Shown here piece by piece: positions 9,069-63,233 of a stretch of DNA of 64,000 nt. Made by a program: the position numbers and the translations under genes. This stretch comes from Candidatus Aceula meridiana (lineage in GTDB: Bacteria; Omnitrophota; Gorgyraeia; Zapsychrales; Aceulaceae), in NCBI GenBank assembly GCA_030765185.1, contig JAVCDE010000024.1:443538-507537 (forward strand), in the 5' to 3' direction. The notes under the pieces are model-generated. The model was given only the letters and a program-made list of their open reading frames with translations, did no database searches and had not been told where the DNA came from. The number at the start of each line of letters is the position of its first letter. Position 1 is the stretch's first letter.

Positions 9069-10373
9069 CTATATAAAATTAATATGTTCAGGGGGATTTT
9101 TAATGTCCCACAAGAATTTATTGATGTAGTCCTGACGGCATCCTACTGTGCAGTCACAATGAACATCAATGTTTTCAGCAATGTCCTTGTGAACTTTCCA
9201 ATATTTTGCACTCTGGACAATACCATAATAAGACTTTTTATGAATGTCGCCCATGCAAAAACGTTCTTTTCCGAAAAAAGGGCCGCACGGATAAACTTTT
9301 CCATTGCCGCTGACCTGGCCTAAAAATGGCGTGCCATAGCAAATGTCATACTTGCGAAAACCATTTTTATAAAGCTGTGTTTCCTCGTTAATGTTAATTT
9401 TGCTCCACTTTACCCGCACGAGATAAGAATCATTGCTGTATTTTTCTGCTTTTTTAAGAATGCCTTGAGCCTTTTTGTATGCCGCATGATCAACGCCAAT
9501 CTCGCCATACTCAGTGTCTGAACATTGTTTAATCTGAAAATAGTCGACCCCGAGCTTTACTCCAAGCTTTGCTAATTTAAGAACCTGATCAAAATTCTCA
9601 GGCAACAAAATCATCTGGATTCCCAGCGTGCATTTATAATTATTTTCTTTCTTAATTTTAGCAAAATTTCTTATTTTATCGATAAGCACATCAAAGCTTT
9701 TCTCACTCACTTGATGAATCCTCGCAAAACCTTTTTTGTCTCCAGCGCTTAAATTAAAACGAATAAACGTCGCATTTTTCAAAAGATCATGAGCCCGGTC
9801 CATTCTCAAAAGAAGACCATTCGTAGCAATGCCAACATCAATATTTCTTTTTTTAGCGCGCACCACAGCATCATACATCGCTGGGTTTAGGGTAGGCTCG
9901 CCGTCTCCGATAAAAGCAATGCTCCGCACTTTCAGTCGTCCGCAATCATCAATAAACCGCATCAAAGCATCTCTTTTGATAAGCGCCCCTTTAACCATTC
10001 CTTGCGCAACGCCCATGCAATAAACGCACCCCATGTTACAAAATTTTGTAAGCCCCATATCAATATGGATAGGAGCAATCCGCTTGTTCCTTTGCCAGTC
10101 AAGAACACGATCCAAATGATGCAAAAGCTTATGTCCATCTAACCGAAAACGCTCACTTTTGTTTTTAAAAGTATGTCCAGTATATTGATTAGGCTTCTTT
10201 TTACCTAAAGAAATTTTTTGAGACTTATCGGGACTCTTTCCCAGAAGAGACCGGTCGACCACTTCTTTTCCTGTTCGAAGCGCATGCCCTCCATGTAAAG
10301 TCGTCTTCAAGCTTTTTACAACTTGAATCTTTTGCGATGTTACCGTCTTTTTCTTGCTTGTTCTTTTTTTCAT
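9069..10373 (-). CDS. radical SAM enzyme with C-terminal Cys-rich (SPASM/twitch-like) region and Lys-rich N-terminal tail; paralog of 11752..12819
   Basis: CNMGCVYC CxxxCxxC motif. C-terminal C...CMGD...CDCTVGC. C-terminus WDIKNPPEHINFI parallels the paralog ending WDLKNSSAHVNFI. Confidence 0.7.
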   Translation of the reverse strand: MKKRTSKKKTVTSQKIQVVKSLKTTLHGGHALRTGKEVVDRSLLGKSPDKSQKISLGKKKPNQYTGHTFKNKSERFRLDGHKLLHHLDRVLDWQRNKRIAPIHIDMGLTKFCNMGCVYCMGVAQGMVKGALIKRDALMRFIDDCGRLKVRSIAFIGDGEPTLNPAMYDAVVRAKKRNIDVGIATNGLLLRMDRAHDLLKNATFIRFNLSAGDKKGFARIHQVSEKSFDVLIDKIRNFAKIKKENNYKCTLGIQMILLPENFDQVLKLAKLGVKLGVDYFQIKQCSDTEYGEIGVDHAAYKKAQGILKKAEKYSNDSYLVRVKWSKININEETQLYKNGFRKYDICYGTPFLGQVSGNGKVYPCGPFFGKERFCMGDIHKKSYYGIVQSAKYWKVHKDIAENIDVHCDCTVGCRQDYINKFLWDIKNPPEHINFI

Positions 10374-17642: not shown

Positions 17643-18833
17643 CTACTTCTTCAAATTCAATACACGAACCTTGACAACACCCTTAATCCCATAAAGGGCT
17701 TTGATAATCTTTTCCGTTGGCTCGCTTGAGACATCAATCACATTGCAGGCGTAATCGCCTTTGCTTTTATTAAGCATTTCTGCGATATTAATATTAGCCT
17801 TAGCCAAAATCGAAGAAAACTGTCCGATTATATTGGGAACATTTTTATTCATAATCACAAGACGAAAATCAGAGCTTTGGTCTAGCTTGCAATTTGGATA
17901 ATTAACAGAATTCTTAATTTTTCCAGTCTCAATAAAATCCCTTAATTGCTTAGCAATCATAGACGCACAATTGCCTTCGGCTTCTGCCGTCGAGGCTCCA
18001 AGATGCGGAATTGCAATAACATTATGCATGTTTAAAAGTTCATCATCCGGAAAATCTGTAACATAACGCGCAACGATGCCTTGCTCAATAGCTACTTTTA
18101 AGTCATCATTGTTAACAATTCCACCGCGTGAAAAATTCAGAATTTTTGCTCCTTTTTTCATGCGTGCAAACTTTTCCGCATCAATCATTCCGCGAGTTGC
18201 ATCGGTTAGTGGTGCATGCAAAGAAATATAATCACTATTAGCAATTAAGGCATCAATGCCTTCAGCACGCTGCACTTCTCTGGATAAACCCCAAGCCGAT
18301 TCAACAGAAATAAACGGATCATATCCAATAACTTCCATTCCTAAGTCCAATGCACTGTTAGCAACCATCACGCCAATTTTTCCAAGGCCGACAACGCCCA
18401 ATGTTTTTCCGGCAATTTCGCCTCCGGCAAAATTCTTTTTGTTTTCTTCAACTAAAGCCGGTACATCAGCGCCTTTCCCTTTTAAAGTCTGCGCGAACGC
18501 GATACCGGCGGCAATATCTCGAGACGCTAAGAGTAAACTCGCGATCGCTAATTCTTTAACAGCATTCGCATTGGCCCCAGGCGTATTAAAAACAACAACA
18601 CCTTTTTCAGAGCATTTTTCAATTGGAATGTTATTGACTCCGGCACCGGCACGACCAACGGCCAATAAAGATGCAGGAAGTTCCATATCGTGCATTTTAA
18701 AGCTACGCAAAATAATCACATCCGGCTGCGTAATTTCAGTTCCAATTTCATATTGGTCTAGCGGAAATGCCGCTAGGCCGTCTTTTGCAATTTTGTTAAG
18801 TGTTTTAATTTTATACATAATGATGGTCTCCAA
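17643..18833 (-). CDS. serA: D-3-phosphoglycerate dehydrogenase with C-terminal ACT domain
   Basis: 2-hydroxyacid dehydrogenase NAD-binding fold (GLGKIG). 396 aa with a C-terminal regulatory domain. Confidence 0.8.
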   Translation of the reverse strand: METIIMYKIKTLNKIAKDGLAAFPLDQYEIGTEITQPDVIILRSFKMHDMELPASLLAVGRAGAGVNNIPIEKCSEKGVVVFNTPGANANAVKELAIASLLLASRDIAAGIAFAQTLKGKGADVPALVEENKKNFAGGEIAGKTLGVVGLGKIGVMVANSALDLGMEVIGYDPFISVESAWGLSREVQRAEGIDALIANSDYISLHAPLTDATRGMIDAEKFARMKKGAKILNFSRGGIVNNDDLKVAIEQGIVARYVTDFPDDELLNMHNVIAIPHLGASTAEAEGNCASMIAKQLRDFIETGKIKNSVNYPNCKLDQSSDFRLVIMNKNVPNIIGQFSSILAKANINIAEMLNKSKGDYACNVIDVSSEPTEKIIKALYGIKGVVKVRVLNLKK

Positions 18834-18870
18834 TTAAAAGATTTTAAATGTTTTATCCGTTTTCTTTTTT

Positions 18871-18938
18871 AAATGAGCCCCGCCCTGGCGGGGCGAATTT
18901 ACCCCAGGAGCGCTTCTTGAGCGACGCGGGGCCTCCTT
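18871..18938 (-). repeat. copy A of a conserved structured intergenic element (serC-serA spacer)
   Basis: AAATGAG-GCCCCGCCCTGGCGGGGC (perfect hairpin)-GAATTTACCCC...GGGG. Related copies at 20037, 27719 and 31120. Confidence 0.5.
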
Positions 18939-20021
18939 TTAAATGTTTTCTTTCTCAAACTCCTGCATAAAAGCCACCAAGGCCTGAACACCCTCAAGAG
19001 GCATCGCATTATAAATGCTCGCGCGCATTCCTCCAACGGTGCGATGGCCCTTAAGAGTCTTTAACCCTTTTTCGGCAGCTTCTGCAATAAACTTTTTATC
19101 AAGCTCTTCATTGCCCGTTACAAAAGGAACATTCATCAGAGACCGGCTTAGTCTTTCAATCGGACTTTTGAAAAGCTTTGAATTGTCTAAATAATCATAA
19201 AGAATTTTAGCCTTATCTTGATTTACTTTTTGCATAACCGCTAACCCACCTTTTTCTTTAATCCATTGAAAGACCAATCCTGCAATATAAATAGAGTAAC
19301 AAGGCGGCGTATTAGCCATAGATCCATTTTTAGCTTGAACTTGATAATCCAAGAGTATCGGAATATTTTTAACGGCATTGCCGATGAGATCCTCTCTGAT
19401 AATCACAATCGTTAAGCCTGCTGGTCCAATATTTTTTTGTGCCCCTGCAAAAATCATACCAAACTTTGTAACATCAATCGGCTCAGACAAAATATTCGAA
19501 GACATATCAGCGATTAATGGCACATTGCCGGTATCCGGAATCTGTGGATAAACAGTCCCATAGATCGTATTATTGGTGACAATATAAAAATAATCTGCAT
19601 CCTTTGTAAATGTTGCCGGGTCTAACTCAGGAATGCGAGTAAATTTATCACCCTCCGAAGATGCAACAACATTAACCTCGCCGTGCTTTTTAGCCTCAGC
19701 AATGGCCTTTTTAGTCCACTGCCCGGTATGCACGTAATCTGCTTTTTTATTCTTAGTCATCAAGTTCATTGGCACAGCGGCAAACTGCATCGAGGCCCCA
19801 CCCTGTAAAAATAACACCTTATAATTCTCAGGGATTTTCATAATTGCCCTTAACGTTGCCTCAGCCTCATCAATGATGCCCTGGAACTCTTTGCCTCGAT
19901 GAGACATTTCCATAACAGACATGCCGCACCCTTTATAGTCTGTCATTTCACCGGCAGCTTTTTTTAAGACTTCTTCGGGTAATGTTGCCGGTCCTGCACT
20001 AAAATTGTATACTCGTGTCAT
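18939..20021 (-). CDS. serC: phosphoserine aminotransferase
   Basis: N-terminal NFSAGPA motif. 360 aa class V aminotransferase. Confidence 0.85.
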   Translation of the reverse strand: MTRVYNFSAGPATLPEEVLKKAAGEMTDYKGCGMSVMEMSHRGKEFQGIIDEAEATLRAIMKIPENYKVLFLQGGASMQFAAVPMNLMTKNKKADYVHTGQWTKKAIAEAKKHGEVNVVASSEGDKFTRIPELDPATFTKDADYFYIVTNNTIYGTVYPQIPDTGNVPLIADMSSNILSEPIDVTKFGMIFAGAQKNIGPAGLTIVIIREDLIGNAVKNIPILLDYQVQAKNGSMANTPPCYSIYIAGLVFQWIKEKGGLAVMQKVNQDKAKILYDYLDNSKLFKSPIERLSRSLMNVPFVTGNEELDKKFIAEAAEKGLKTLKGHRTVGGMRASIYNAMPLEGVQALVAFMQEFEKENI

Positions 20022-20036
20022 AATTTTATCCCCCTT

Positions 20037-20107
20037 AATGAGCCCGCCTTAGCGGAGCGATTTTATCCCAGGAACGCTTTTAAGCGACGCGGGACTTCCT
20101 TAGTTTG
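20037..20107 (-). repeat. copy B of the conserved structured intergenic element (5' of serC)
   Basis: TAATGAGCCCGCCTTAGCGGAGCGATTTTATCCCAGG...CGCGGGACTTCCTTAGTTTG. Hairpins with compensatory changes relative to copy A. Confidence 0.5.
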
Positions 20108-20721
20108 TTAGTAATAAACCTCGCGGCAATAAACCGCAAAGCACTTGTAAAATCCATATCTAGGTAAATAATCTCCTTAGGAACTACTATTTTTTCCGGG
20201 GAAAAGTTTAAGATGCCGCTGACCCCTGCCTTAATGAGCTCATCAGCCACTTCTTGAGCGTTGTTAGCGGGCACCGTGATAATGCCAAGCTCAATAGACT
20301 TCTGTGCAATAATATTTTCCATCTCGCTGATAGCAAAAACATCAATATGTGTTTTAATGCGCTCCAACTTGTTTATGCTATTATCAAATCCCGCAACGAT
20401 TTCAAATCCGTCTTGTTTAAATCTCTCATAATCCAAGAGAGCTGTTCCAAGTCTGCCCAACCCTACGATGCAGGCCTTACGTTTTTTATCAAGCTTGAGT
20501 GTCTGACCTAATTCCTTTTTCAAAGAGACAACTGAATAGCCTTTTCGCGTGTAGCCGGTTACTCCCAGAAGGCTAATATCTTTGCGAATGGTATCATTAG
20601 TGGTACCGATAGCTTGTGCTAAATCTTTTGATGAAACAAAATCCACTTGTCTTTCCTCAAGGCTTTCGAGGCATCCGAAAATCCGGCAAACACGATCAAT
20701 TGTATTGTTCGGTAAATCCAT
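20080..20721 (-). CDS. rex: redox-sensing transcriptional repressor Rex
   Basis: Winged-helix N-terminus plus Rossmann motif VGLGRLG. 213 aa. Confidence 0.8.
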   Translation of the reverse strand: MDLPNNTIDRVCRIFGCLESLEERQVDFVSSKDLAQAIGTTNDTIRKDISLLGVTGYTRKGYSVVSLKKELGQTLKLDKKRKACIVGLGRLGTALLDYERFKQDGFEIVAGFDNSINKLERIKTHIDVFAISEMENIIAQKSIELGIITVPANNAQEVADELIKAGVSGILNFSPEKIVVPKEIIYLDMDFTSALRFIAARFITNKLRKSRVA

Positions 20722-20738
20722 TTAATCCTCCGAAATAT

Positions 20739-20758
20739 TTAGTGAATTATTTCACTAA
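20739..20758. promoter_or_regulatory. Rex operator-like palindrome upstream of rex
   Basis: TTAGTGAATTATTTCACTAA matches the Rex box TTGTGAA-N4-TTCACAA. Lies 18 nt upstream of the rex start. Confidence 0.55.
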
Positions 20759-20896
20759 TATAGCATTGAATGCTCATTTGTCAAGAGGATATTTTAGATA
20801 TTTTTTATTAATTTTGTTAACTACTGGATGGCATACACTTAAGATATTTTTATTTCTCTTGTATCTGTGAAATAAATCACGGATATATACAATAAT

Positions 20897-21193
20897 CTAC
20901 TTATGGATAAACTGCATAATATGAATTGTAACAATGCAAGACCCCAGAGCCATACGAAAACAACGGGCTAATTGATTCTTGATAGCGCTCTCTTGATGGC
21001 TAACTATATCGAAAATAGCTTCCAAACAGAGAAAAGACCCTGCCGCCAAGGAAACAATATCAATTACAACGGGGTCTAAATAACTGCAAGAATCAAACAC
21101 AGAACTCGCCGCTCGCTGAATGCTGTACGCTAAGTAAGAAAAGCCAGCTGAAAAGGCAAAGGCAACGCACAAAGTTTTCTTAAGTTGGGTCAT
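20897..21193 (-). CDS. small integral membrane protein, hypothetical
   Basis: 98 aa, three hydrophobic segments. Confidence 0.35.
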   Translation of the reverse strand: MTQLKKTLCVAFAFSAGFSYLAYSIQRAASSVFDSCSYLDPVVIDIVSLAAGSFLCLEAIFDIVSHQESAIKNQLARCFRMALGSCIVTIHIMQFIHK

Positions 21194-21395
21194 TTTTCTA
21201 AAATTTGAAATAGTTTTAAATTTATTTTCTTATGCTACGCTGTGTGGTCTTAGAAATTCCTATGCCGATGCGAAGAGTTCTACCAAAGCTTTTGGTAACC
21301 CGCCGCTTGAAGACGAATCCCTTTATTTAAATTCCATCAAAATCTTTTTTGATAATTTTATTTTAGCACAACAATCAAAGGAATCCTAAATCTTA

Positions 21396-22166
21396 TTATA
21401 CCTTAGCAGGACGCTTTTTTAACTTTGAAGGATTTTTTATCATTAAAAAAATCATCCATCCACCGAAAACCAAACAAAATCCCATAGATAAAAACCCGCA
21501 AGCACGAAAGAAAAAAGCAACTGCACTGTCAAAAGACAATATTCCCATTTGCGTTAACATATAATTCCAATCGTGGCTAACATCCGGTGTTGCGCCCCCA
21601 ATCGTTACCAGAGGCAACACCATAGCTTGAGCGTCACCGGCGTATGTTGCCACGTTGAAAAAATTAGTAGAAAGCCAGCCAGAACAAAGCACTGTAGCAA
21701 AATAATCACTCTGTCTTAAGAAATTAAGAGCAAGAAAAAAAGGCGCCAAAAGTTGCAGCATTGTACCTCCGGAAACTGCTAGAAACCTTCCATCAAAAGA
21801 AAAAACTATGTGCCCTAGCTCATGAATCCCTAAATTAAGATTCCCGAAAATACTCTGATAATCCGGGTTGCCTAAATACCGGATCAAAAGATAAGCAAAC
21901 CATATCAGCAAAGGAAGGCGAAAAAACCCGTTTCTTTCCTCACACCATTCGGTAATATTTTCTTTCATGTCTGATACAAAACTATGTCGTTTGTTCACGA
22001 TAGGCTTAAAGCTGCTACCATCGGCCTTGCCCTCTTCTATCAAAAGAATGAGCAGTCCCTCTTTTTGTATTTTCTTAATGGCCTCATCCATACTTTGGGC
22101 CTCGACGGCTCCGGAGACATCTTCTAATTTACTATTTTTTGCTTTATAGGGAAAAATAGGTGACAT
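21396..22166 (-). CDS. membrane protein with HExxH zinc-metallopeptidase motif
   Basis: HELGH inside a hydrophobic region. Soluble N-terminal domain. Confidence 0.45.
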   Translation of the reverse strand: MSPIFPYKAKNSKLEDVSGAVEAQSMDEAIKKIQKEGLLILLIEEGKADGSSFKPIVNKRHSFVSDMKENITEWCEERNGFFRLPLLIWFAYLLIRYLGNPDYQSIFGNLNLGIHELGHIVFSFDGRFLAVSGGTMLQLLAPFFLALNFLRQSDYFATVLCSGWLSTNFFNVATYAGDAQAMVLPLVTIGGATPDVSHDWNYMLTQMGILSFDSAVAFFFRACGFLSMGFCLVFGGWMIFLMIKNPSKLKKRPAKV

Positions 22167-22203
22167 TAAAAAATCCCTTTAAAAGGACCGATTTGATTTT
22201 TAG

Positions 22204-23661
22204 TTATTTTTTATGAACATCTTCTTTGGAAACAAGCTTATCGGTCATGCGTAGCCACTCGATAAAAAGTTTTTTATACTGCAGGTCATGAAAAATTTCG
22301 TTAAACCTGTTAGTGTCCACCACATTAACCGCAGCGATGTAATCGTTTAGCGTGATGCGCCCGAATGAATAATTTTCCGTCTCATCCTGCAAAATCGACC
22401 TCGCCAAATCTATTTTCTCTTTGGCGATATTCAACAATTTCTCTTCGCTTTCCATCTGGACTGATAAATTCTTAATATCCGTATATAGCTGAAAATGTGT
22501 TCCTGTGTTAGACAACCTTGTTTTATCTAAATTAATTTTTGAGACCTCGTGCTCGGCGCGGTCTACTTGATCTCCTATCGGCCAATCCAACGAGATGCCG
22601 GCATAAACCATACTATCTTCATTCTTAAGGCTTAAGTTTTTTCCTTGCACATTATACCCAAAAAGCAAATTAATAGACGGTAGAAGATCGTCCGCCTCTT
22701 TATCAACTTCAAGGAAGCTTTTCTTCTCCAAAAGATTCAAAACTTCATACGTGCGGCTGACCTCTTTAAACTCTTGAAAATCTTTTTCAAAAGAAACAGC
22801 CTGTTCAGAATAAAGTCCCGGCGCTTCAGGAACAAGCTCTTTCTGGCCGCTATGACGAATGGCCTTCTCAACAAAGTTAAGTGTCTTTGCATATACCTCT
22901 TTAAGCTCAATGAGTTTTTCTTTCTTAGCCAACACCTGCAAATGCACTTTGTTGACGTCAACGGGAAGGGCAATATTATTTTTCTGTCGCTCAAGGATGT
23001 TATCAAATAATTTCATGTTTTGCTGATAGGAAGATTCGCCTATTTTTAAGCTCTCATACGCCTCATACCAATCGTAGTATCCGATAATAATCGTTGCCAA
23101 ATAATCTTCATAGGCCTCGATAATTTGGTATTTAGCTACGTCGACCTCAACTCCGATAATCTTATCTTTTAAGCGGGTCGCCTTGCCAAAGGCATTTTCG
23201 GCAATAGGCTGGGCAATACCGATGCCGACTTCGCTGGAATTGCTAGCCGATGAATACGAAGCATTGGTTATATATTGGGCCTCAAGACTTGTGCCGGTAA
23301 ACGGAAATAATTTCGTTAAAGATAACGTCCCCTCACCTTCTTTTCTCTCCTGACCAAAAATAAAATCATATTGCCCTTTGGCCGCAAGCACTAAATCGCC
23401 GGCAGGAAGGTTAATGGCTTTCTGATATTGCAAGGATAGCTCATCAATTAAAATACGCTCAAACTCGGTGTCATTGTGAGCTGCCAATGTAATAAATTCT
23501 TCAAGCGGCAGCGTTCTGGTTTCCTGATCCTCTTGTTTTTCAAGGGGCTGAGGCATCTCTCGTTTTTCTTCGGCCATCATGACGCCTGCCCAACACAATG
23601 CCATGCCGAGTGCAACTAGGGTAATAAAAATCATTTTTTGTTTCATATCTTTTGTTTTCAT
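22204..23661 (-). CDS. outer-membrane efflux protein (TolC-like OMF)
   Basis: Signal peptide, coiled-coil repeats. Immediately downstream of the RND pump. Confidence 0.7.
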   Translation of the reverse strand: MKTKDMKQKMIFITLVALGMALCWAGVMMAEEKREMPQPLEKQEDQETRTLPLEEFITLAAHNDTEFERILIDELSLQYQKAINLPAGDLVLAAKGQYDFIFGQERKEGEGTLSLTKLFPFTGTSLEAQYITNASYSSASNSSEVGIGIAQPIAENAFGKATRLKDKIIGVEVDVAKYQIIEAYEDYLATIIIGYYDWYEAYESLKIGESSYQQNMKLFDNILERQKNNIALPVDVNKVHLQVLAKKEKLIELKEVYAKTLNFVEKAIRHSGQKELVPEAPGLYSEQAVSFEKDFQEFKEVSRTYEVLNLLEKKSFLEVDKEADDLLPSINLLFGYNVQGKNLSLKNEDSMVYAGISLDWPIGDQVDRAEHEVSKINLDKTRLSNTGTHFQLYTDIKNLSVQMESEEKLLNIAKEKIDLARSILQDETENYSFGRITLNDYIAAVNVVDTNRFNEIFHDLQYKKLFIEWLRMTDKLVSKEDVHKK

Positions 23662-23663
23662 TT

Positions 23664-26600
23664 TTAAATACTCAATTTAAACTTGTGTTCAAAATCTTTC
23701 AAAAAAGAATAAATACATGGAATAAGGATAAGCGTAATAAGCGTGCCAAACATCAGCCCCCAAGCCAAAGCCAACATCATCTCGGCCAACATTGCATCAT
23801 ATCCGGCAAACCCATAAGCCGTTGGTAAAATCCCGGCTACCGTCGTCAATGTCGTTAATACAACAGCGCGAAGTCGGGTCTTAGCAATATTGGCAATTTG
23901 CCCGCTGGCCTCTTCTTTTCCTCTATCCTTTTTATATTCTCGATCAAGCTTAACCAACATAATAATCGAATCATTGACAACAACCCCCGCGAGGCCCAAT
24001 GCTCCAATGGCTGCAAAAAACCCAAAGAGCACTTTGCCATGCAACCAAAATGCTAAAATAATACCAATCATACCAAAAGGAATAGAAAGCATAATGATCA
24101 AAGGCCTAATCAAAGAATTAAATAATACCGCTAAAACAACATAAATCAGCAAAAGAACCAAAATAATCGCGCTAGCCAGATCGGCTTTGGACTCTCTGGT
24201 GCTTTCAACTTCTCCGGTAAAAGATAATGTTGTCATCGGATATTTCTTCAGAATCCCAGGAAAAACCTCTTTTTCAAAATATTGGGCGATCTCTAAAGGC
24301 GTTTGTGCATGCTTCTTTTTTAAATCCGCATCAATGGTGGTCGTCCTTTTTAAATCTTCGCGCGTAATTGAGTTTAAGACCGTAGTCTTCTCAACATGAA
24401 CAACATCCCTTAAAGGGACCAAATAATTCCCTTTATTTTCGACCGGAAGGCTAAGCACTTCTTCAATGTCCCCCTTGGCCGAATCCACAATAGAAAAGCG
24501 TGTCTGAATATCCTCGTAGGGGCCAGTAAATTCATAAAGGATATTCCCTTCTAAAGCGGCGCGAAATGTCGAGGCAATATCACCTGAGTTAATCGAAAGC
24601 CGTTTGGCCTTGTCCCTGTCAATATCAATGCGGTATTCATCAATGCGCATATCTCCGTCAATCTCCACATTCTCCAAAGACGGGTACGCCTGTAACTTCT
24701 TTTTTAAATCTTGAGAAATAGCCTCACGTTCTGCATCATTATTTTGCTGAACCAAAAGTTCTATAGCGCTGCCTGACGATTGACCCCAGCGGCTTTTGCT
24801 AAAATTAAGTTTTTCAAAACCTTCAAGCCCCTCAACTTCCTTTTTAAGCTTCTCAACAATTTGATCAGCTGACTTCTTACGCTTTTCTTTAGACACGATC
24901 TCAAGAGAAATTCTAAAATTATTTTCTTCTACGGCTCCGCCTCGTCTGCTTCGCGCGATATCAGTGCTAACCCCCACCAATTCTTTATTAAAGTCTCTAA
25001 GAATAATATCTTCAATTCTACGTGTTTCCTGCGCAGTTTCAAAACGTTTCGCCCCCTCATGAATTTTACCGGAAACCATAATATCCCTAGTTTCTTCATG
25101 CGGAAACATAACAAATTTAAATTGATATTTGATAAGCAAGCCCGAAATAATAAACAAAACAACAAAGGCAAGAAAAACAAACCCTTTAAACAAAAGAACT
25201 TTTTCGATAAAGCGCCCATACTTATCTTCAATTTTTTCAAACCAATGGCCTTGCCGACTCATCTGGCCAGGTTCTTTTCTTTTTCCGCTTAACTTGCTTA
25301 AAAAAGGAAATTTTAAATTCATGTGACCCGGCAAAATAAAAATCGATTCGACAAAGCTAGCCGCCAGCACAAGAAAAATAATCGTCGGAATAGGTTGGAT
25401 AAATTTCCCAAAATGCCCGGTGAAAAAATATAACGGGATAAACGCCACGCACGTCGTAATAATGCTGGCTAAGACGGGCAAGATCACATACGCCGTTCCC
25501 TTAACAACAGCCTCGCTTTGCGCCATGCCCTCGTTTGACAAGCGCGTAATATTCTCGGCAACCACAATGGCATCGTCGACGATAATCCCCATCACAATAA
25601 TAATGGCCGCAAGCGTCATGCCGTTAATGGTCTGCCCCATCAACGGTGCTGCAATAGCCGTAAAGCAAAGCGTAAAAGGAATGCCCATTGCCACCCAAAG
25701 CCCGGCTTTGCGGCTTAAAAAAAGAAACAATATAAGGACGACAAGGATAAAACCAAGACTGCCGTTAAGCGCAATGAGCGATAACCGGTTGCGGATATCA
25801 ATCGACTCATCGTCTAGCAAAACAACCTTAAGAGAAGTTTCCTGAAGATTATTCTTTTCAAAATCTTTAACAGCTTTCTTAACGGCATCAATAGCCTCAA
25901 TAATTCCATATGAACTATTTTTAACAACATTCAAAATAACCGCCTGACGGCCGTTAACCTTGCGGATTTCTTTGGTTTTTTCAAAACCCTCTGTGATGCT
26001 GGCAACTTCACCTAGTCGGACAACCTGTCCCTCAAAACCGCCCTGAATAATCAAACTCCTAAGTTTCTCAGGGCTATCCAGCTCGGAAACCAAAGAGACT
26101 TGAGGTTCTTGCGCATTTTCAATATTTCCGGCCGGCTTGCGCACATGATTACTTTTAATCTCATTCATGGCTGTATTAAAAGGAATTTGATATTTGAGAA
26201 GTTTTTCAGGGTAAACTTTAATTTGAAGTTCTTGGTCTAAGTATCCTCGGCGGTTTACGCTATTGACTTGCGGAAGGTTTAGAAGCTGACTTTCAAGAGC
26301 AAAAGCATATTTTTGCAGTTCACGCCTTTGCTCGGGATTAAGGAGATGAATATCTTCGTCATAAAGGGCAATATCAATAATAGCTTTTTTACTGGTCTTA
26401 AAAACCCTGACATCCGGGTCGTCTATCACCTCAGTAGGCAAATTAACATCCAAAACCGTATTACGAATTTCTGTAACAGCCTGATCGATGTCCGGATAAT
26501 TTTGTTCAATTTCAATATTAATATTTGACTGGCCCACACTCGTCGTGCTTGTCACGCGGTAGACACCATCAAGCCCCCGGACAACCTCTTCAATAGGCTT

Positions 26601-26798
26601 AGTCACAAAATATTCAACATCTTCCGCCGGAGCCCCTGGATAAGAAACAGAAATCCTAACCCGGTCAAAAGTAATATCCGGGAGCTCTTCTTTGCTGGTA
26701 TTGTTCCAGGCAAAAATACCGCCTATAAAAACACTGATAAAAATAAGATTGGCAAGAAGGTGCCGTTTGGTGAAATACGAAATGAACTTTTCAAGCAT
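23664..26798 (-). CDS. RND-family efflux transporter permease (AcrB/CzcA-like)
   Basis: 1044 aa, 12 TM plus two large periplasmic loops. Confidence 0.85.
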   Translation of the reverse strand: MLEKFISYFTKRHLLANLIFISVFIGGIFAWNNTSKEELPDITFDRVRISVSYPGAPAEDVEYFVTKPIEEVVRGLDGVYRVTSTTSVGQSNINIEIEQNYPDIDQAVTEIRNTVLDVNLPTEVIDDPDVRVFKTSKKAIIDIALYDEDIHLLNPEQRRELQKYAFALESQLLNLPQVNSVNRRGYLDQELQIKVYPEKLLKYQIPFNTAMNEIKSNHVRKPAGNIENAQEPQVSLVSELDSPEKLRSLIIQGGFEGQVVRLGEVASITEGFEKTKEIRKVNGRQAVILNVVKNSSYGIIEAIDAVKKAVKDFEKNNLQETSLKVVLLDDESIDIRNRLSLIALNGSLGFILVVLILFLFLSRKAGLWVAMGIPFTLCFTAIAAPLMGQTINGMTLAAIIIVMGIIVDDAIVVAENITRLSNEGMAQSEAVVKGTAYVILPVLASIITTCVAFIPLYFFTGHFGKFIQPIPTIIFLVLAASFVESIFILPGHMNLKFPFLSKLSGKRKEPGQMSRQGHWFEKIEDKYGRFIEKVLLFKGFVFLAFVVLFIISGLLIKYQFKFVMFPHEETRDIMVSGKIHEGAKRFETAQETRRIEDIILRDFNKELVGVSTDIARSRRGGAVEENNFRISLEIVSKEKRKKSADQIVEKLKKEVEGLEGFEKLNFSKSRWGQSSGSAIELLVQQNNDAEREAISQDLKKKLQAYPSLENVEIDGDMRIDEYRIDIDRDKAKRLSINSGDIASTFRAALEGNILYEFTGPYEDIQTRFSIVDSAKGDIEEVLSLPVENKGNYLVPLRDVVHVEKTTVLNSITREDLKRTTTIDADLKKKHAQTPLEIAQYFEKEVFPGILKKYPMTTLSFTGEVESTRESKADLASAIILVLLLIYVVLAVLFNSLIRPLIIMLSIPFGMIGIILAFWLHGKVLFGFFAAIGALGLAGVVVNDSIIMLVKLDREYKKDRGKEEASGQIANIAKTRLRAVVLTTLTTVAGILPTAYGFAGYDAMLAEMMLALAWGLMFGTLITLILIPCIYSFLKDFEHKFKLSI

Positions 26799-27007
26799 AT
26801 TTTCTATCCTTATCTAAAGGTATAAACAATATTCCCATTATCCCCTTAGACAGTTTTTATTCAACAAAAGTTCCCTAATATATAATATAAATAAACCTAG
26901 AAATTTAAAAAACATTCTCTTTTTTTAGTAAGTTACAGAGATTATTTTAGCATGGGGTTAAAGAAGATTTCAAAAATTCTAAAAAAATAATCTTATAAAA
27001 TTCCTTT

Positions 27008-27355
27008 TCAATTGTTAGATTTTGGATTAAAAGCTAGAAAAACCGCAACACCCAAAAGCGCGATATCGCGTATTTCCTGAAACTGCAAGGCAATAAGAAT
27101 AGCAGCAAGTTGTAACGCAGCGGCAATAGCCGCCGGGCGTAACCAAAGCCCGCTGATAAGCAAAAGCGCCGTTAATGTTTCAACAGCGCCTAAGCCCCAA
27201 ACAGAATATTGCGCCGGCCAGGGCATGGCTTGAACGACTGGCATCGCCTCCATGCTACGCGCCCAATAGTCGCCGGTAAATTTTCCAATGCCGAAAATCA
27301 AAAAAACAATTCCTAAGGAAGCACGTAATATAATAAAGGCAATTTTGTTTTTCAT
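27008..27355 (-). CDS. DoxX family membrane protein
   Basis: 115 aa, four TM, DoxX-like composition. Confidence 0.7.
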   Translation of the reverse strand: MKNKIAFIILRASLGIVFLIFGIGKFTGDYWARSMEAMPVVQAMPWPAQYSVWGLGAVETLTALLLISGLWLRPAAIAAALQLAAILIALQFQEIRDIALLGVAVFLAFNPKSNN

Positions 27356-27708
27356 TTAGCTTCAATGGTCTTTTCAAGCTTACCGTTAATATTGCAATAA
27401 CCTTCCACCCCGATAATATCTCCTGCTTTAATGTCCGGCAATCGGTAGCTGACTGTTTGCGTGTCCGGTGTCTCTTGGAAAGAAATTTGCTGCCCAATTA
27501 CTTCTTTGTCGTTTATCGAAACATCGATTTTATTAATGTAGTGTTGGTCTGGATTTCGAACCGGATGCACAATGACCGCAGTCACGATCTTGGTGGCAGC
27601 ATCATAGCTTAAATCAATTCGAACAGGCGGATGCGCAAACACCGATTGACTGCTTAATAAAACGACCATAAAACTTACGACAACAATAATAATATTTTTT
27701 TTCATCAC
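27352..27708 (-). CDS. small secreted protein, hypothetical
   Basis: Signal peptide MMKKNIIIVVVSFMVVLLSSQSVFA. Overlaps the DoxX start (operon). Confidence 0.5.
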   Translation of the reverse strand: MMKKNIIIVVVSFMVVLLSSQSVFAHPPVRIDLSYDAATKIVTAVIVHPVRNPDQHYINKIDVSINDKEVIGQQISFQETPDTQTVSYRLPDIKAGDIIGVEGYCNINGKLEKTIEAK

Positions 27709-27718
27709 ACCCCTCCTT

Positions 27719-27780
27719 AAAATGAGCCCCGCCCTAGCAGGGCGAATTTACCCTGGCTGACTTAGGCCAGGGCTTACTTT
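27719..27780 (-). repeat. copy C of the conserved structured intergenic element
   Basis: AAAATGAG-CCCCGCCCTAGCAGGGCG-AATTTACCCTGGC-TGACTTA-GCCAGGG. Begins 11 nt from the start codon at 27708. Confidence 0.5.
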
Positions 27781-27896
27781 AAATTATTCTAACATGCACT
27801 TAAGATGAATTCTAAAAAATTGTTAAATCAAAAAAAATAGGGCCGTCTGGATATGGACGGCCCTTATTCATCAATTTTAAAAACTTTTAAAGGCCT

Positions 27897-29372
27897 TTAA
27901 GTATTCTTAATAAATGTTCGCTTTAAAGTGTCGCCTAAGCGTCCTTTTTTGAGCTCTCCCCATAAAGCTGCGAGAATAAGAATTGGCGCTGTTAAAACAA
28001 ACAATATCAACTCTGAAGGCCTAAAAAATTTCACCTCAAAAATGTTCTTCCTTAATATTTTCACAAACCGGCCAGGTGTATAAAAAGAATATCGCATTCT
28101 TCGACCAATTTTTTTTAAGGCAGCGTGACTATACATATCCGAATAAAGCTCTCCTCTGTCTGTCACATGATAGCCCGGAGTTTTTTCGGCAATTTCTTTT
28201 AGCGCTGAAAACTTTTCTATTCTTAATTTATTAAACGTCATTCCGTCAACGCCGATTTCTTTAGCAAACTCCGGAATGCGCAACATCTCTTCTTCAGTTT
28301 CACCGATATTTCCATAAATAAAATATCCATGACAGTAAATCGGATATTTTGTAAGAACCTTAAAAGCCTCTCTGATATCATTAGAATTAAACCCCTTGTT
28401 AAACTGCTCAAGCACCCAGTCATGAGGTGATTCTATTCCTATCAAAAGCGCCTTAAATCCTGCCTTGACCATTTTATCCAAAAGCTGCGGATGCTTGGCA
28501 ATATCAATTCTTGTCTGGGCAATAAAACGCTTATTCAGCTTACGAGCAATAATTTCATCACAAATCTGCTCTGATCTTTTCTTATTGGCAAAAACTTCAT
28601 CATCCCCAAACAAAATAACGCCAGCGGTAGTATTTTCAATTTCATCGACCACAGATTTAATACTGCGTTCAGAATATTTTCGCTTTTGCCCTAGAGGATT
28701 CAAATTAAACGTGCAAAACTTACAATTAAACGGGCATCCTCTCGCTGTCAAAACAGAATCAAAAGAAAGATTCGCAACGCCAACTCCGTTTAGCGATAAA
28801 AGATATTTGTAACGTCTTAGACTTCGATCTGGAGGAACAAGATCTTCCGCGTCGATAAACGGTCTAAAGCCGGTATGAATAAGCTCACCGTTCTCCCTAT
28901 AAGAAATCCCCAAAATATCTTTAAGAGGTACATCACTTAAGATTTCTTTGATCGTAACCTCTCCCTCTCCTCGCACAACGATATCAACTGTTTCGCACCG
29001 ATCAAGCAACTCAACCGCACATTCTGTTGCCTTATACCCACCGACAATTAAAGGAATTTCTTTAGGAATTTTATTTAATAAATCACAAATTTCATCAAAT
29101 TGGCGGTCCCAGGTTAAACTTACTCCGATAAAATCAATTTCTTCTTGCCGAATAAAATCAACTAAATTATTCGTATCAGACAATTCTTTTTCCTGTCTCA
29201 AGTCAAGGACCGTTATTTTCTCCATATAATCCTTGGAGCTTGTGGCGATATACTCAAGACCAACCGGAGGAAAAATCCTCATCGCGCTGGTAGAGCTGCT
29301 TTCAGTGTAAGGATTTAAGAACAAACCATGACTATATTTCTTTTTTTTCTGCGTCTTTTTTACTTCTATCAT
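27897..29372 (-). CDS. B12-binding domain radical SAM protein (class B) with C-terminal TM segment
   Basis: N-terminal cobalamin-binding-like region. RGCPFNCKFCTF CxxxCxxC motif. C-terminal hydrophobic helix. Confidence 0.7.
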   Translation of the reverse strand: MIEVKKTQKKKKYSHGLFLNPYTESSSTSAMRIFPPVGLEYIATSSKDYMEKITVLDLRQEKELSDTNNLVDFIRQEEIDFIGVSLTWDRQFDEICDLLNKIPKEIPLIVGGYKATECAVELLDRCETVDIVVRGEGEVTIKEILSDVPLKDILGISYRENGELIHTGFRPFIDAEDLVPPDRSLRRYKYLLSLNGVGVANLSFDSVLTARGCPFNCKFCTFNLNPLGQKRKYSERSIKSVVDEIENTTAGVILFGDDEVFANKKRSEQICDEIIARKLNKRFIAQTRIDIAKHPQLLDKMVKAGFKALLIGIESPHDWVLEQFNKGFNSNDIREAFKVLTKYPIYCHGYFIYGNIGETEEEMLRIPEFAKEIGVDGMTFNKLRIEKFSALKEIAEKTPGYHVTDRGELYSDMYSHAALKKIGRRMRYSFYTPGRFVKILRKNIFEVKFFRPSELILFVLTAPILILAALWGELKKGRLGDTLKRTFIKNT

Positions 29373-29390
29373 ATCTTAGATCAACCCCTG

Positions 29391-29840
29391 TTAAAATATT
29401 AACTTATCAGAATCTTCCTTAAGCTTTAAAGTAGCATCCCGCTGTACTTGCTGTAACGTTGCTAATTCCTGGCGAATTTTGATCTTTTTCTGATGATCTT
29501 GCTCGCACAAAACATTTACTTCCGCAATTTCAATTTTTAAAGCATCAAGGACCTTCTGCAAGTCATCTACAGCAGAGACCTCTACGCAAATCGAATCCTT
29601 GATAAACCACATTTTTCTTTTAGCAATGTCGGAATCCTTCTTTTGAATTTCATAAAATTTCTTTTGCCAAGATTGATCAGGACTTGTCGCAAGCTTAAAA
29701 GAGACAACCCAATAATCTTTATTATCCGAGCTGATTCTGATCGAATCTTTATCAATGCCGACAATTTTTATTTCTTGATTCTCGCCACTCATCTGCCTTT
29801 TTCTCCCTTTCTTAAAAACTTTGATTGGCTTAACAACCAA
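29391..29840 (-). CDS. hypothetical protein with coiled-coil C-terminus
   Basis: 149 aa. Sits between the helicase stop and the B12-radical SAM start with gaps under 20 nt. Confidence 0.4.
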   Translation of the reverse strand: MVVKPIKVFKKGRKRQMSGENQEIKIVGIDKDSIRISSDNKDYWVVSFKLATSPDQSWQKKFYEIQKKDSDIAKRKMWFIKDSICVEVSAVDDLQKVLDALKIEIAEVNVLCEQDHQKKIKIRQELATLQQVQRDATLKLKEDSDKLIF

Positions 29841-29854
29841 AATTCTAACTAACC

Positions 29855-31108
29855 TTAACGCCTCCTACGGTTAGAACTATATGTTCTGCGTTGTCCCCTG
29901 CCAGAGCTGCGGGAGCTAAACACCGTTTGAGGCTTATCAAATTTCTCTAGAGAGCTGCCCTCATCAACTGAAAGCGGAATAGTTGCTTTTAACAAGCGTT
30001 CAATATCTTTAACACCTTGTCGTTGGTCAGGCGTAGCAAGCGAAATCGCATGTCCGGCCATTCCGGCGCGTCCGGTGCGACCAATTCTGTGAACATAGTT
30101 CTCTGTATCCTCAGGCAAATCATAATTAACAACTAGCTCAATTCCTACAACATCGATGCCTCGAGAGGCAATGTCAGTTGCAGCTAAAATTCTATATCGG
30201 CCTTTGCGGAATCCTTCTAAGGCTTCCCTGCGCTGGGACAGAGAACGGTCTGAATGGATCTCCGCAGCCCGATGCCCTAAGGCACGAACTGCACGGGCGG
30301 CTTTTTTGGTTCCAATTTTCGTACGGCAAAATAGCAATACTGACCCTCTGTACTGCTTTAGTATTTTTCCTAAAACCTCAATCTTTTTTTCTCTGCGGAC
30401 AATAAATAACTCATGCGATACATCTTCCGCTGAAGTCCCCGGAGGGGCAATTTCCACCTGAACCGGAAACTTCATATAAGAGGTAGCAATACGAACGATT
30501 GTTGATGGCATGGTGGCTGAAAAAAGCATGGTCTGCCGCTTGCCTGTTACAACTTTTAATATTTTCTCAATCTGCGGAGCAAAGCCCATATCCAGCATAC
30601 GGTCAGCTTCATCTAAGACCAAAATGCCAACCTTATCCAGATGAATCTTCCGTTGTTGCATCAAATCGATGAGACGCCCCGGAGTCGCGATAAAAATCCT
30701 TGGATGTTGTTGCAAAGCTCTTATCTGAGTATGGATCGGAGCCCCACCTATCAAAACTACTGTTTTCATATTAAATGGGCGGGCAATTTTAGCAACACTT
30801 TCTTCAACCTGAAAAGCCAATTCTCGGGTTGGAACTAAAATCAACGCCGATAAATTATTTTTAGCAAGATTCTGAACCGTAGGAATAGCAAAAGCCATGG
30901 TCTTGCCTGTCCCGGTCTGCGCGATGCCGATAAAGTCTTTGTCCTCTAAAGCAATCGGTATTGCCTTGTGCTGTATAGGCGTCGCGTTCTTAAATCCTAA
31001 TTGACCAATCTTTTCAATAATCTTTGGGGCAATTCCCAGTCCATAAAAACTAAGCGGTTGTGCATTACCTTCTAGGGTGTCTTTTGTTTCAATTTTTTTG
31101 TTCTTCAT
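29855..31108 (-). CDS. DEAD-box ATP-dependent RNA helicase
   Basis: Q-motif region. AQTGTGKT, DEAD, SAT, HRIGRTGRAG. Arg-rich C-terminal tail. Confidence 0.9.
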   Translation of the reverse strand: MKNKKIETKDTLEGNAQPLSFYGLGIAPKIIEKIGQLGFKNATPIQHKAIPIALEDKDFIGIAQTGTGKTMAFAIPTVQNLAKNNLSALILVPTRELAFQVEESVAKIARPFNMKTVVLIGGAPIHTQIRALQQHPRIFIATPGRLIDLMQQRKIHLDKVGILVLDEADRMLDMGFAPQIEKILKVVTGKRQTMLFSATMPSTIVRIATSYMKFPVQVEIAPPGTSAEDVSHELFIVRREKKIEVLGKILKQYRGSVLLFCRTKIGTKKAARAVRALGHRAAEIHSDRSLSQRREALEGFRKGRYRILAATDIASRGIDVVGIELVVNYDLPEDTENYVHRIGRTGRAGMAGHAISLATPDQRQGVKDIERLLKATIPLSVDEGSSLEKFDKPQTVFSSRSSGRGQRRTYSSNRRRR

Positions 31109-31119
31109 TAACTACTCCT

Positions 31120-31186
31120 AAATGAGTCCGCCACTAAATCAATAACGGATGAATTTATCCCGCACTCGCAGGATTTCCTTAGTTTG
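31120..31186 (-). repeat. copy D of the conserved structured intergenic element (5' of the helicase)
   Basis: AAATGAGTCCGCC...GAATTTATCCCGCACTCGCAGGATTTCCTTAGTTTG. Shares its ends with copy B. Confidence 0.5.
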
Positions 31187-31357
31187 ACTGAGACTTTTGT
31201 GCTCTTTTTTCTTGTGACGCATAATCGCTGTGAACATTACAAAAAGCATCTTCATTGTAAATGCTCAAAGTATGTTTGCAATGAGGATGCTTACATTTTC
31301 TTCCTTTTGGCGAAATTTTTATTTTTTTGATAACAATCCCTTTCGTTTCGAGGGTCC

Positions 31358-31396
31358 AAAAAAACCGCGAAGGTTAGTTGTCTCCCTCGCGGTTTT
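31358..31396 (-). terminator. intrinsic terminator on the minus strand (hairpin plus U7)
   Basis: Minus strand reads AACCGCGAGGG-AGACAACTAA-CCTTCGCGG-TTTTTTT. About 40 nt downstream of a TGgTATAAT extended -10 at 31425..31440. Confidence 0.5.
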
Positions 31397-31440
31397 AAGA
31401 TCCTCTAATCTTTCGATTATTATACCATGTTATCAAATAT

Positions 31441-31535
31441 AATGTATTTTTTCTTAAATGAACACATCTCTTGCGCGACTAAAAGGGAGCGCTAAGATAT
31501 ATGCACGAATTTACCCCGTGTTCGAAACGCATAGG
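31441..31535 (-). repeat. degenerate fifth copy of the structured intergenic element
   Basis: Minus strand reads GGGGTAAATTCG...GCGC-TCCCTTTTAGTC-GCGC...TTCATTTAAG, paralleling copy A. Confidence 0.35.
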
Positions 31536-31538
31536 GGT

Positions 31539-31569
31539 AAAAAAAGGCCCATCGTCATGGGCCTTTTTT
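31539..31569. terminator. bidirectional intrinsic terminator downstream of the ferredoxin gene
   Basis: AAAAAAA-GGCCCATCGTCATGGGCC-TTTTTT. Confidence 0.65.
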
Positions 31570-31586
31570 GTATCAAATTTTAATAA

Positions 31587-31772
31587 CTATTCAACCGTAA
31601 TCGCTGCGGCTGGGCAAGCATCTGCTGCGGACTTGCATTTATCTTCTAGTCCTGCAGGAACCTCTGCGGCGTGAACAACTGCCTTATCATTTTCCATCTT
31701 AAAAACCTCAGGGCAAGTATCAACGCAATCCTGACTTCCAACGCATAAATTTTGATCAACTTTTGCTTTCAT
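31587..31772 (-). CDS. small ferredoxin (single-cluster, Pyrococcus/Thermotoga type)
   Basis: MKAKVDQNLCVGSQDCVDTCPEVF...CKSAADACP (CxxxxCxxxCP...CP). Start set at the internal ATG with a GGAGGGAG RBS. Confidence 0.75.
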   Translation of the reverse strand: MKAKVDQNLCVGSQDCVDTCPEVFKMENDKAVVHAAEVPAGLEDKCKSAADACPAAAITVE

Positions 31773-31953: not shown

Positions 31954-32007
31954 TTCTTTATTAGAATTATTACTAATTTTATTATTAATTAAGGAGACAG
32001 TGCTTAC

Positions 32008-62704: not shown

Positions 62705-63233
62705 TCTATTTTCCTCCTTAACAAATGTCATTCATTTTACCCTACATTTAAGAATTCGGCAAGACTCAAAATTAAGGCGTGGCAAAAGAATACCAAATTT
62801 GTGCCAACTATTGTATATTAAACAAAAACCCCGCAACTTTTTAGTCACGGGGAGTCTGTAATTCACAGCTTATTACTTCGTAGAAAATAAATTACTTCTT
62901 AACTTTCTTGGCTTTCTTGGCTTTCTTTTTGTTTGCGATTTTATCTCCCATTTTCACATCCCCCCTTCGGTTACCCTAAATAATTAACAATAAAATATTA
63001 TAACATCTTTCTCTCATTCTCAGAGACTTTTTCAATGTGCCAGATAAATGAAAACATGACTTACGGAGCAAAGCGCTCGTAAGTCATTTGTCTGAATTTA
63101 TCCGGCGTATGCTGGATAAATCTACGTTGACCTTTCGAATCCTTGGCGAAGGGTTTGCGCTAACCATCAATCAACAATATTTTTGTTAGCACAGCGTTAG
63201 CACGAAAAATCGCAACATCTCTTCTTGCTTTTT

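Follow-up and report, generated by a model that had tools for sequence, protein, structure and literature searches.

Among described repeats, those closest to the element treated here are the REP, BIME and REPIN families (RAYT, TnpA-REP) and the hairpin elements derived from IS200/IS605 (PATEs), with which it shares the character of a short, non-coding, extragenic repeat of high copy number that forms imperfect hairpins (PMC6006769, PMC3337134, PMC3733652, PMC8266576). We analysed a stretch of 64,000 nucleotides (nt) from Candidatus Aceula meridiana (Omnitrophota; assembly GCA_030765185.1, contig JAVCDE010000024.1, positions 443,538 to 507,537 of the forward strand), hereafter the window, in which a family of two-hairpin elements recurs at the boundaries of minus-strand genes. 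The elements are probably a non-autonomous, strand-specific mobile repeat of Omnitrophota, REP/MITE/MIRU-like in kind, which sits at gene boundaries, is co-transcribed, and of which only copies with compact sense-strand folds are kept. A role as gene-specific, riboswitch-like regulators was not supported by comparison of orthologous loci. The family is previously undescribed and is so far found only in Omnitrophota.

Six copies, all in minus-strand orientation like nearly all genes of the window, occur there at a density of about one copy per 10 kb (Table 1). A preliminary description of this DNA had named four of them (A, B, C and D), and each lies where it was placed; the window total is larger than that count, owing to two diverged copies, E and F, which were detected by a simple motif scan and then by a covariance model. 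The unit is 57-120 nt long and non-coding, and reads, from 5' to 3', (AA)GGARG, hairpin P1, GGGRUAAAUUC, hairpin P2 and YUCAUU(UA). Three conserved single-stranded motifs thus join and flank the two hairpins, of which the linker GGGRUAAAUUC is invariant and the 5' motif resembles a Shine-Dalgarno sequence. Alignments bore out the features first noted on the plus strand, with AAATGAG, the core GAATTTAYCCC and two hairpins common to A-D and the far end common to B and D. Neither strand holds a conserved small open reading frame (ORF): the plus-strand ATG ORF of A is not found in B, and upstream ORFs enter the element in differing frames without yielding a conserved peptide. No sigma-70-like promoter was predicted inside any copy, the core TAAATT having neither a -35 box nor a properly placed TG.

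The covariance model, R1, was built from 12 copies with the P1 plus P2 structure. Neighbourhoods of relatives were collected via serC (L001-L006, L127-L136), via endoQ (L220-L224) and via the helicase gene (L225-L227), and a specific pattern run on metagenome contigs gave 13 further loci (L207-L219), 5 of them, on 4 distinct contigs, with full copies. Across the window and these Omnitrophota loci (about 0.45 Mb, at least 10 genomes or contigs) R1 recovered 24 copies at E ≤ 1e-3, 12 of which were new. The six window copies scored 45-64 bits (E 1e-8 to 1e-13); besides the window, positive contigs were L005, L127, L132, L135, L209, L211, L215, L219, L220, L221 and L222, with one weaker match in L224, and the hosts outside Ca. 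Aceula meridiana are named Omnitrophota metagenome-assembled genomes (MAGs). The serC and helicase proteins of the window show 100% identity to proteins of the Ca. Aceula meridiana MAG, on a 537,930-bp contig. When R1 was run on 653 kb of Clostridia control loci gathered with the same serC query, nothing better than E = 0.3 was returned. A 21-base-equivalent pattern matched twice in the window and not once in 100 shuffles, and a broad pattern run on viral contigs gave chance matches only, among the matches listed (L007-L126, discarded as uninformative). The earlier statement that the element belongs to no known Rfam family also held: Rfam 15 gave no match at the gathering threshold over the whole window and none on contigs L211, L216 and L219, and at E ≤ 10 over positions 18000-32500 it gave only chance-level hits, such as RyhB at 22 bits against a gathering threshold of 55.

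Mobility is indicated by orthologous sites that are empty in some genomes and occupied in others. The rex-serC-serA operon is syntenic in all relatives, and its spacers vary. Between serC and serA the spacer is 120 nt in the window and 32-34 nt in L001, L003, L005 and L127, all of which are without copy A. The rex-serC junction carries no element in 10 of 13 relatives (L001, L003, L127 and seven more distant Omnitrophota loci), and its spacer measures only 15-28 nt in 6 of the 13 compared; it is occupied in the window (58 nt, with the element overlapping Rex), in L005 (92 nt) and in L135 (much larger), the last two by copies of a different subtype. The serC identity matrix groups the window with L001, and L003 with L127 and L005, leaving L135 distant, and occupancy does not follow this tree. 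The occupied genomes are not mutual closest relatives, which leaves either three or more separate insertions at the junction or repeated loss of the element. In L003 a small GC palindrome (GGGCGCGCCC) within the 44-nt spacer (9957-10000) takes the place that the element has in other lineages, and could be the remnant of a lost copy. The closest relative, L225, likewise lacks copy E, and its homology to the window picks up again exactly past ..TTCATTT. At a third site, the leuS-endoQ spacer is 35 nt in L223, and in L209, L220, L221 and L222 it holds one or two elements along with accessory genes. This spacer is a hot spot for accessory genes, which are hemerythrin in L209 and L220, TMEM175 and hemerythrin in L222, and a methyltransferase with a HinfI-type restriction system in L221.

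Insertion also left its mark on neighbouring genes, three copies having rewritten the 3' end of the gene upstream. Two extend Rex, which is 205 aa in L001 and L003, 213 aa in the window and 211 aa in L005, ending in the latter two inside P1; the window Rex ORF (20080-20721) reads 8 codons into copy B and stops in the P1 loop, so that B supplies its last 8 codons and stop. The third, copy A, replaces the last serC codon and stop: by alignment the ancestral end (..GAA AAC GGA TAA) now lies downstream of the element, and the present end (..AAC ATT TAA) lies at its boundary. Direct repeats flank some of the insertions. In L211 an exact 16-nt repeat (TAAGATATCAATAAAA), which takes in the final codons and the stop of the gene upstream, abuts both ends of the element, and a 13-nt repeat flanks copy A. 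Both exceed all 132 cross-pair controls drawn from 40-nt flanks, and about 1% of controls reach them when flanks of 100 nt are used. In L209 and L220 a duplication of about 72 nt, made up of the last 17 leuS codons and the first ~20 nt of the element, flanks the element together with a hemerythrin gene.

Modules of the element are shared across copies and genomes. Over its 32 nt, the 3' half of A (TAAATTCGCCCCGCCAGGGCGGGGCTCATTTA) is identical to that of the L222 copy, whose 5' half (P1) matches L211 at 39 of 42 nt; within the window, A has its P1 in common with B and its P2 in common with C. The family is thus assembled, mosaic-like, from a small number of discrete hairpin types. Contig L215 holds the truncated 5' fragment of an older copy immediately before a complete, newer one (3225-3262), and it carries four copies within 5.5 kb, each before an accessory-type gene (lipase, RelA/SpoT-like, domain of unknown function). 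Next to this stretch, at the contig edge (L215:1-60, minus strand), there is a transposase-like N-terminus (MGKRFKAEEIVMKLREIEL..), presumably IS3-like. Elsewhere, L213 (10988-11021, minus strand) has a perfect 5' half (AAGGAAG, P1 and GGGATAAATTC) without P2 or TCATT, and L208 (2480-2700, on a contig of 52% GC) has P1-plus-core-like hairpins (TCCCGCCGAAGCGGGATAAACTC), so hairpin modules may also occur alone or in other arrangements. A copy with the short P2 of A (L219:1954-2048, minus strand) stands directly upstream of a gene with the N-terminus VSKEILVQVAQGERRVAVL..GNIYKGKVESI, which we take to be RNase E/G-like.

Insertions were directed with respect to genes. New copies land right after xTAA, which is often where the gene upstream stops, and just before the host Shine-Dalgarno sequence of the next gene: the left flank ends in ..AA, usually xTAA, in 10 of the 12 copies compared (those with a GGARG/GUAAG 5' end), and YTCATT is mostly followed by TA(A/G). 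Sense orientation to neighbouring genes was found for 22 of 24 copies. The two clear antisense copies lie in the endoQ-uvrD spacer (L220:7282-7387 and L221:7617-7718), where no minus-strand gene explains them, and the weak L224 match falls at the same place as the antisense copy of L220. From TCATT to the start codon there are 12-20 nt in 11 of 14 gene-proximal copies, in agreement with the position just upstream of the ribosome-binding site that had been given; the short distance first claimed for all four named copies applies to B, C and D (12-15 nt) but not to A (53 nt). No start codon adjoins copies E and F, which have no GGARG/GUAAG end. In the endoQ clade the element runs with its 3' end right up to the ATG, and endoQ is without an obvious Shine-Dalgarno sequence even where the site is empty. 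The set of genes preceded is functionally mixed, as had been noted. The preliminary description had set its reading of a conserved regulator against REP- or MITE-like behaviour with random placement; the behaviour is that of a mobile repeat, but orientation and position are far from random.

Compensatory change in the stems, and with it a selected secondary structure, was substantiated by covariation. Of 20 modelled pairs, 12 change on both sides; 89.7% of cells are paired, none of 500 column shuffles reaches any of five covariation measures, and pairing falls to 23-44% when the partner is slid by 1-3 columns. The base pair that closes P1 is C-G in 5 copies and U-A in 6, a clean alternation. 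In a model-guided alignment of 18 copies, G.U or U.G pairs number 33 against 8 A.C or C.A mismatches, a count that leans slightly towards the model and about one third of which is given by a single conserved G.U column. This excess identifies the sense strand as the one whose fold is kept, consistent with the mRNA-sense fold proposed at the outset. Partition-function folding showed that in 11 of 14 copies the translation-start region has an unpaired probability at or above the mean for 60 controls with a shuffled element, and that accessibility with the element is close to that of an element-deleted construct; no conserved alternative pairing between element and ribosome-binding site appeared among the 14 folded copies. 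The Shine-Dalgarno site that follows copy B is also present in the empty site of L001 and is therefore host sequence. The suggested overlap with the ribosome-binding region is consequently not supported, as the downstream Shine-Dalgarno sequence is the host's and is not sequestered by the fold.

Table 1. Copies of the element in the window and direct repeats flanking copy A; spans of A-D are measured from GGARG to TCATT on the minus strand.
Feature	Position	Strand	R1 score (bits)	Context and parts
Copy A	18872..18936	-	60.1	Between serC stop (18939-18941), which it abuts, and serA ATG (18818); GGAGG, P1 (CCCCGCG...CCUGGGG), GGGGUAAAUUC, short P2 (GCCCCGCC-AGG-GCGGGGC), CUCAUU
Distal 13-nt direct repeat TTTTAAATGTTTT	18842..18854			Flanks copy A; partner at 18937-18949
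Proximal 13-nt direct repeat	18937..18949			Abuts 5' end of A; encodes last serC codons and stop (..AAC ATT TAA)
Copy B	20037..20099	-	57.5	rex-serC junction; ends 15 nt before serC ATG (20021)
Copy C	27721..27777	-	47.9	Short P1 (CCCUGGC..GCCAGGG) and short P2; z = -3.8; starts ~7 nt past extended -10 promoter (TGTTAGAAT, 27786-27794); ends 15 nt before ATG (27705) of 117-aa secreted protein, DoxX next
Copy D	31121..31178	-	45.3	Ends 12 nt before DEAD-box helicase ATG (31108); conserved upstream small ORF (31255->31139) reads into it
Copy E	31457..31538	-	56	Long P2, without GGAAG 5' end; directly after ferredoxin terminator, ~30 nt upstream of helicase-leader promoter (TGGTATAAT, 31419-31427)
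Copy F	63047..63120	-	63.9	Long P2 (ACAAAUGACUUACG..CGUAAGUCAUGUUU); in 500-nt spacer, upstream of promoter (TGTTATAAT, 62997-63005) and 19-aa Lys-rich ORF

Some features near these copies are of interest in their own right. The helicase leader (31139-31427, minus strand), which is conserved in L225, comprises the promoter TGGTATAAT, a terminator-like hairpin with U-tract (31358-31395) about 25-60 nt downstream of it, and the small upstream ORF (MKMLFVMF..HKKK..), an arrangement reminiscent of a leader of attenuator or cold-shock type, or of a small RNA. Downstream of F (62892-63005, minus strand) follow an extended -10 promoter, a strong Shine-Dalgarno sequence, the lysine-rich ORF of 19 aa (MGDKIANKKKAKKAKKVKK, start 62951) and a terminator hairpin. 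In serC, which served as a query, Omnitrophota sequences are 63-70% identical to those of many gut Clostridia (Ruminococcaceae, Acutalibacteraceae) and 73-77% identical to those of other Omnitrophota, a closeness that could stem from an old gene transfer.

For the mobile repeat that we favour, the following course of events is proposed. Being sense-oriented inside operons and leaders, the element would be transcribed within the mRNA. Selection would keep its sense-strand fold, a compact two-hairpin unit that spares the downstream ribosome-binding site, the upstream stop and the downstream start, and this selection would account for the covariation of the hairpins and the tolerance of G.U pairs. 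The fold may also modulate mRNA processing or stability, whether incidentally or as an adaptive intercistronic site of stabilisation or processing; such sites classically consist of two stable hairpins joined by an AU-rich linker. Mobilisation would be provided in trans by a separate enzyme. Strand specificity, subterminal hairpins and an xTAA left flank resembling the right end CAUUUAA point most towards a single-strand mechanism of the HUH, IS200-IS605 or RAYT-like type.

Several observations weigh against a mobile repeat. The Omnitrophota sample was partly gathered by searching for the element itself. Among the genes near copies, in loci that are not whole genomes, no transposase or other partner gene was seen. 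A duplication flanking the element itself is clear only in A and L211 and is not found in 16 of the 18 copies tested; the L209 copies scored nothing on this test, their 72-nt repeat flanking the element plus gene. Lengths of 13, 16 and ~72 nt match no known fixed-stagger transposase and are unexpected for HUH enzymes, and duplications this long do not fit an HUH-type mechanism well. Plus-strand GC skew is uniformly negative and nearly all genes in the sampled loci run with it, so that gene-linked and replication-linked orientation are inseparable here. Some positions are also retained. The element upstream of endoQ keeps its exact place in four lineages (L209, L220, L221 and L222, at 80-89% protein identity), and copy D has a diverged orthologue (P1 and core) in L225, which looks more like a kept functional leader than a selfish insertion. 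The gene upstream of the endoQ element (hemerythrin or HinfI-type nuclease) and the hairpin subtype differ among the four lineages. The retained sites (endoQ, D and rex-serC) are compatible with selective retention, or with a strong site preference under which old copies are replaced by new ones.

These retained positions also count for a first alternative, the view of the preliminary description in generalised form: a functional cis-acting leader or intercistronic RNA module that sets translation, processing or stability of the downstream (or upstream) cistron and has spread through recruitment as a useful module and not by selfish transposition. Selection on the sense-strand fold would be expected of such a module, as would the sense orientation of 22 of 24 copies and the 12-20 nt between its 3' end and the start codon in 11 of 14. 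The contact with the endoQ ATG is kept in all four lineages in spite of the differing upstream gene, L225 has an orthologue of D, three lineages independently came to carry an element at the rex-serC junction, and the identity of the 32-nt module in distant genomes suggests constraint at the sequence level, for example a protein-binding site. We nonetheless regard this explanation as unlikely, because the sites of the closest relatives are empty, with tight spacers of 15-35 nt and unchanged gene order, and because the genes served are heterogeneous. E and F stand away from start codons, and two or three copies, located at the endoQ 3' end or immediately ahead of uvrD, run antisense. The fold neither sequesters the ribosome-binding site nor offers it a conserved alternative pairing partner, and insertions rewrite upstream ORF ends and leave target duplications. 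Much the same evidence, namely empty orthologous sites, subtypes that differ per lineage at one junction, E and F off start codons, two antisense copies and rewritten upstream gene ends, speaks against the conserved 5'-untranslated-region (5'-UTR) regulator of the preliminary description, a reading that holds only in part. A riboswitch- or thermometer-like 5'-UTR regulator was rejected in view of the mixed genes, the empty orthologous sites, the lack of Shine-Dalgarno or start masking and the lack of a terminator U-tract.

Other alternatives concern the genes that accompany some copies. In L209 and L220 the element forms the 5' edge of an inserted block with hemerythrin, and the target duplication abuts the element. 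The 138-aa gene between two copies in L209 had been considered as an IS200-type transposase, which was rejected, the gene being hemerythrin. In the window, the module of the 117-aa secreted protein and DoxX lies between a radical-SAM gene and the acrB operon with copy C in front. This block is not at the same position in L225, relative to which its place is immediately past the -10 box in the promoter of the acrB operon. The same module was seen upstream of the helicase leader in L225 and after serA and an FAD oxidoreductase in L003 and L005. A possible duplication of the acrB promoter around the window block (regions concerned: 26941-26986 and 27783-27819 in the window, 4100-4290 in L225) scores 47, against 35 ± 5.5 and a maximum of 56 in shuffles, and is suggestive. 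Downstream genes lie in the same inserted block in at least one case (hemerythrin) and perhaps in two (117-aa protein and DoxX).

On this basis, the element might be the recognition or leader module of a new type of Omnitrophota mobility, orientation-specific, aimed at junctions of stop codon and ribosome-binding site, carrying downstream genes and leaving a long, variable target duplication, a proposal that we hold to be distinctly unlikely. Insertion would then not be classical cut-and-paste; it could be RNA-mediated and target-primed, arise by template switching during replication, or be integron-like without known attC/IntI. If so, the folded RNA would act as a portable leader with which a moved gene is expressed wherever it lands.

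Very unlikely in our judgement is a cassette or retro-type unit, in which the element would be the 5' junction or leader of a gene-carrying unit that moves by copying a variable length of target, whether through RNA-mediated target priming, template switching during replication or an integron-like circle recombining at the element. Flanking duplications that are long and variable (13, 16 and ~72 nt) would suit such a unit, and so would the place of the element at the 5' edge of the hemerythrin block, the same layout of copy C with the 117-aa protein and DoxX (where the duplication is only suggestive, its score lying below the shuffle maximum), the four L215 copies each before an accessory-type gene, and the older, fragmentary copy that immediately precedes a newer one in L215. 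However, a scan of the genes neighbouring the copies revealed no reverse transcriptase, integrase or transposase, the restriction-modification insertion of L221 is not flanked by two elements, A and B were inserted alone into a conserved operon, and the integron attC core sites RYYYAAC / GTTRRRY are absent.

That the elements are ordinary intrinsic terminators, or else GC-rich hairpins arisen by chance in spacers rich in AT, is scarcely credible, for although P2 of copy C plus UCAUUUUAAG passes a lenient terminator scan, P2 of A, B and D does not, genuine terminators of the window (27839-27864 and 31540-31570) have 7-9 T where the tail of the element has 3-4 U, and chance is excluded by the conserved non-hairpin motifs, the covariation and the specificity of the model. 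Intrinsic termination was accordingly rejected, the tail UCAUUUAA being without a U-tract and C alone passing the lenient scan. BoxA-like antitermination (GCUCAUUUAA compared with GCUCUUUAA), CsrA GGA sites, a twister-like ribozyme, an RNase E site in the AU-rich linker and a casposon-type duplication of 14-15 nt were also considered, and no test supported them.

Omnitrophota are an uncultured and widespread phylum, of whose mobile DNA and RNA-level gene control almost nothing is known. Within it, the element remodels gene ends and operon spacers and marks sites at which accessory genes were inserted; as long as the family goes unrecognised, both gene ends and spacers will be set wrongly in gene calling and in comparative work on these MAGs. 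The covariance model can be applied directly to any Omnitrophota assembly. Strict sense orientation, placement before the Shine-Dalgarno sequence, hairpin modules shared between genera and long, variable duplications are unusual among bacterial repeats, and they offer a handle both for finding the mobilising enzyme and for testing whether structured insertions are merely tolerated or are used as intercistronic expression modules.

Among known systems, REPs inside operons act on mRNA stability. Like REP and IS200/IS605 elements, the family is strand-specific, with subterminal hairpins, no long terminal inverted repeats and a left flank resembling the right end (PMC6006769, PMC3337134), and like BIMEs it is a mosaic of hairpin types with conserved linkers. 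It has the layout of IS200/IS605-derived elements, with P1 near the 5' end, P2 near the 3' end, no terminal inverted repeats and strand specificity in both fold (33 against 8) and orientation (22 of 24). For the fixed target without duplication that is typical of such elements the picture is mixed: the ..AA/xTAA flank recurs in 10 of 12 copies, yet L211, A and L209/L220 are duplicated. In contrast to REPs, there is no GTAG/CGTC tag at the foot of the hairpin, the consensus 5' end being AAGGAAG; GTAG occurs in one variant only (L215:1264, AGTAGAAATCCC) and CGTC only in A and B, within the loop region of P1. Each unit has two different hairpins in tandem, unlike the inverted hairpins of REP pairs, and placement is in sense upstream of the Shine-Dalgarno sequence, whereas REPs lie mostly at 3' ends or between convergent genes. 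No RAYT/TnpA gene was seen in the loci examined, which are not whole genomes, and HUH transposition leaves no target duplication, while here 13-16 nt are duplicated in two copies and ~72 nt in one gene-carrying insertion.

Classical MITEs and structured repeats such as Correia/NEMIS, ERIC, BOX, RUP and RPE carry true terminal inverted repeats, duplicate a short target of fixed length (e.g., TA) and usually occur in both orientations. The ends of the present element are complementary only as AAAGGAG/CUCAUUU (6 of 7), its duplications are long, variable and confined to 2 of 18 copies, and its orientation is 22:2. To our knowledge, IS1634 and IS1549 represent the only type of bacterial transposition with long, variable target duplications. 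Long, variable direct repeats are ascribed to them in PMC2266710, with reference to Vilei et al. 1999 and Plikaytis et al. 1998. They are, however, autonomous insertion sequences of 1.5-2 kb with inverted repeats and a DDE transposase, and nothing links them to the element. An integron attC is, like the element, a structured site of 60-140 nt that reaches from a stop codon to the next ribosome-binding site, is oriented in gene sense and sometimes bounds accessory genes. The RYYYAAC / GTTRRRY core sites occur in none of the aligned copies, no intI or integrase domain was found among the neighbouring genes scanned, two hairpins stand side by side in place of one long bulged hairpin, and copies lie inside a core operon (rex-serC-serA).

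In general properties the family also resembles MITEs and the Correia/NEMIS, ERIC, BOX, RUP and RPE repeats, sharing their similar size, non-coding nature, strong fold, insertion polymorphism, co-transcription and duplication in young copies, and with RPE it shares insertion into gene ends with extension of the ORF. In placement it is comparable to the MIRUs, which Supply et al. reportedly described in 1997 as lying in operon spacers, gene-directed and touching or overlapping the upstream stop and the next start region. MIRUs are tandem units of 46-101 bp with small coupled ORFs and are not defined by hairpins. The element is likewise intercistronic, in gene sense and at stop/start junctions, but unlike MIRUs it is without a conserved ORF and occurs in single units built on two covarying hairpins.

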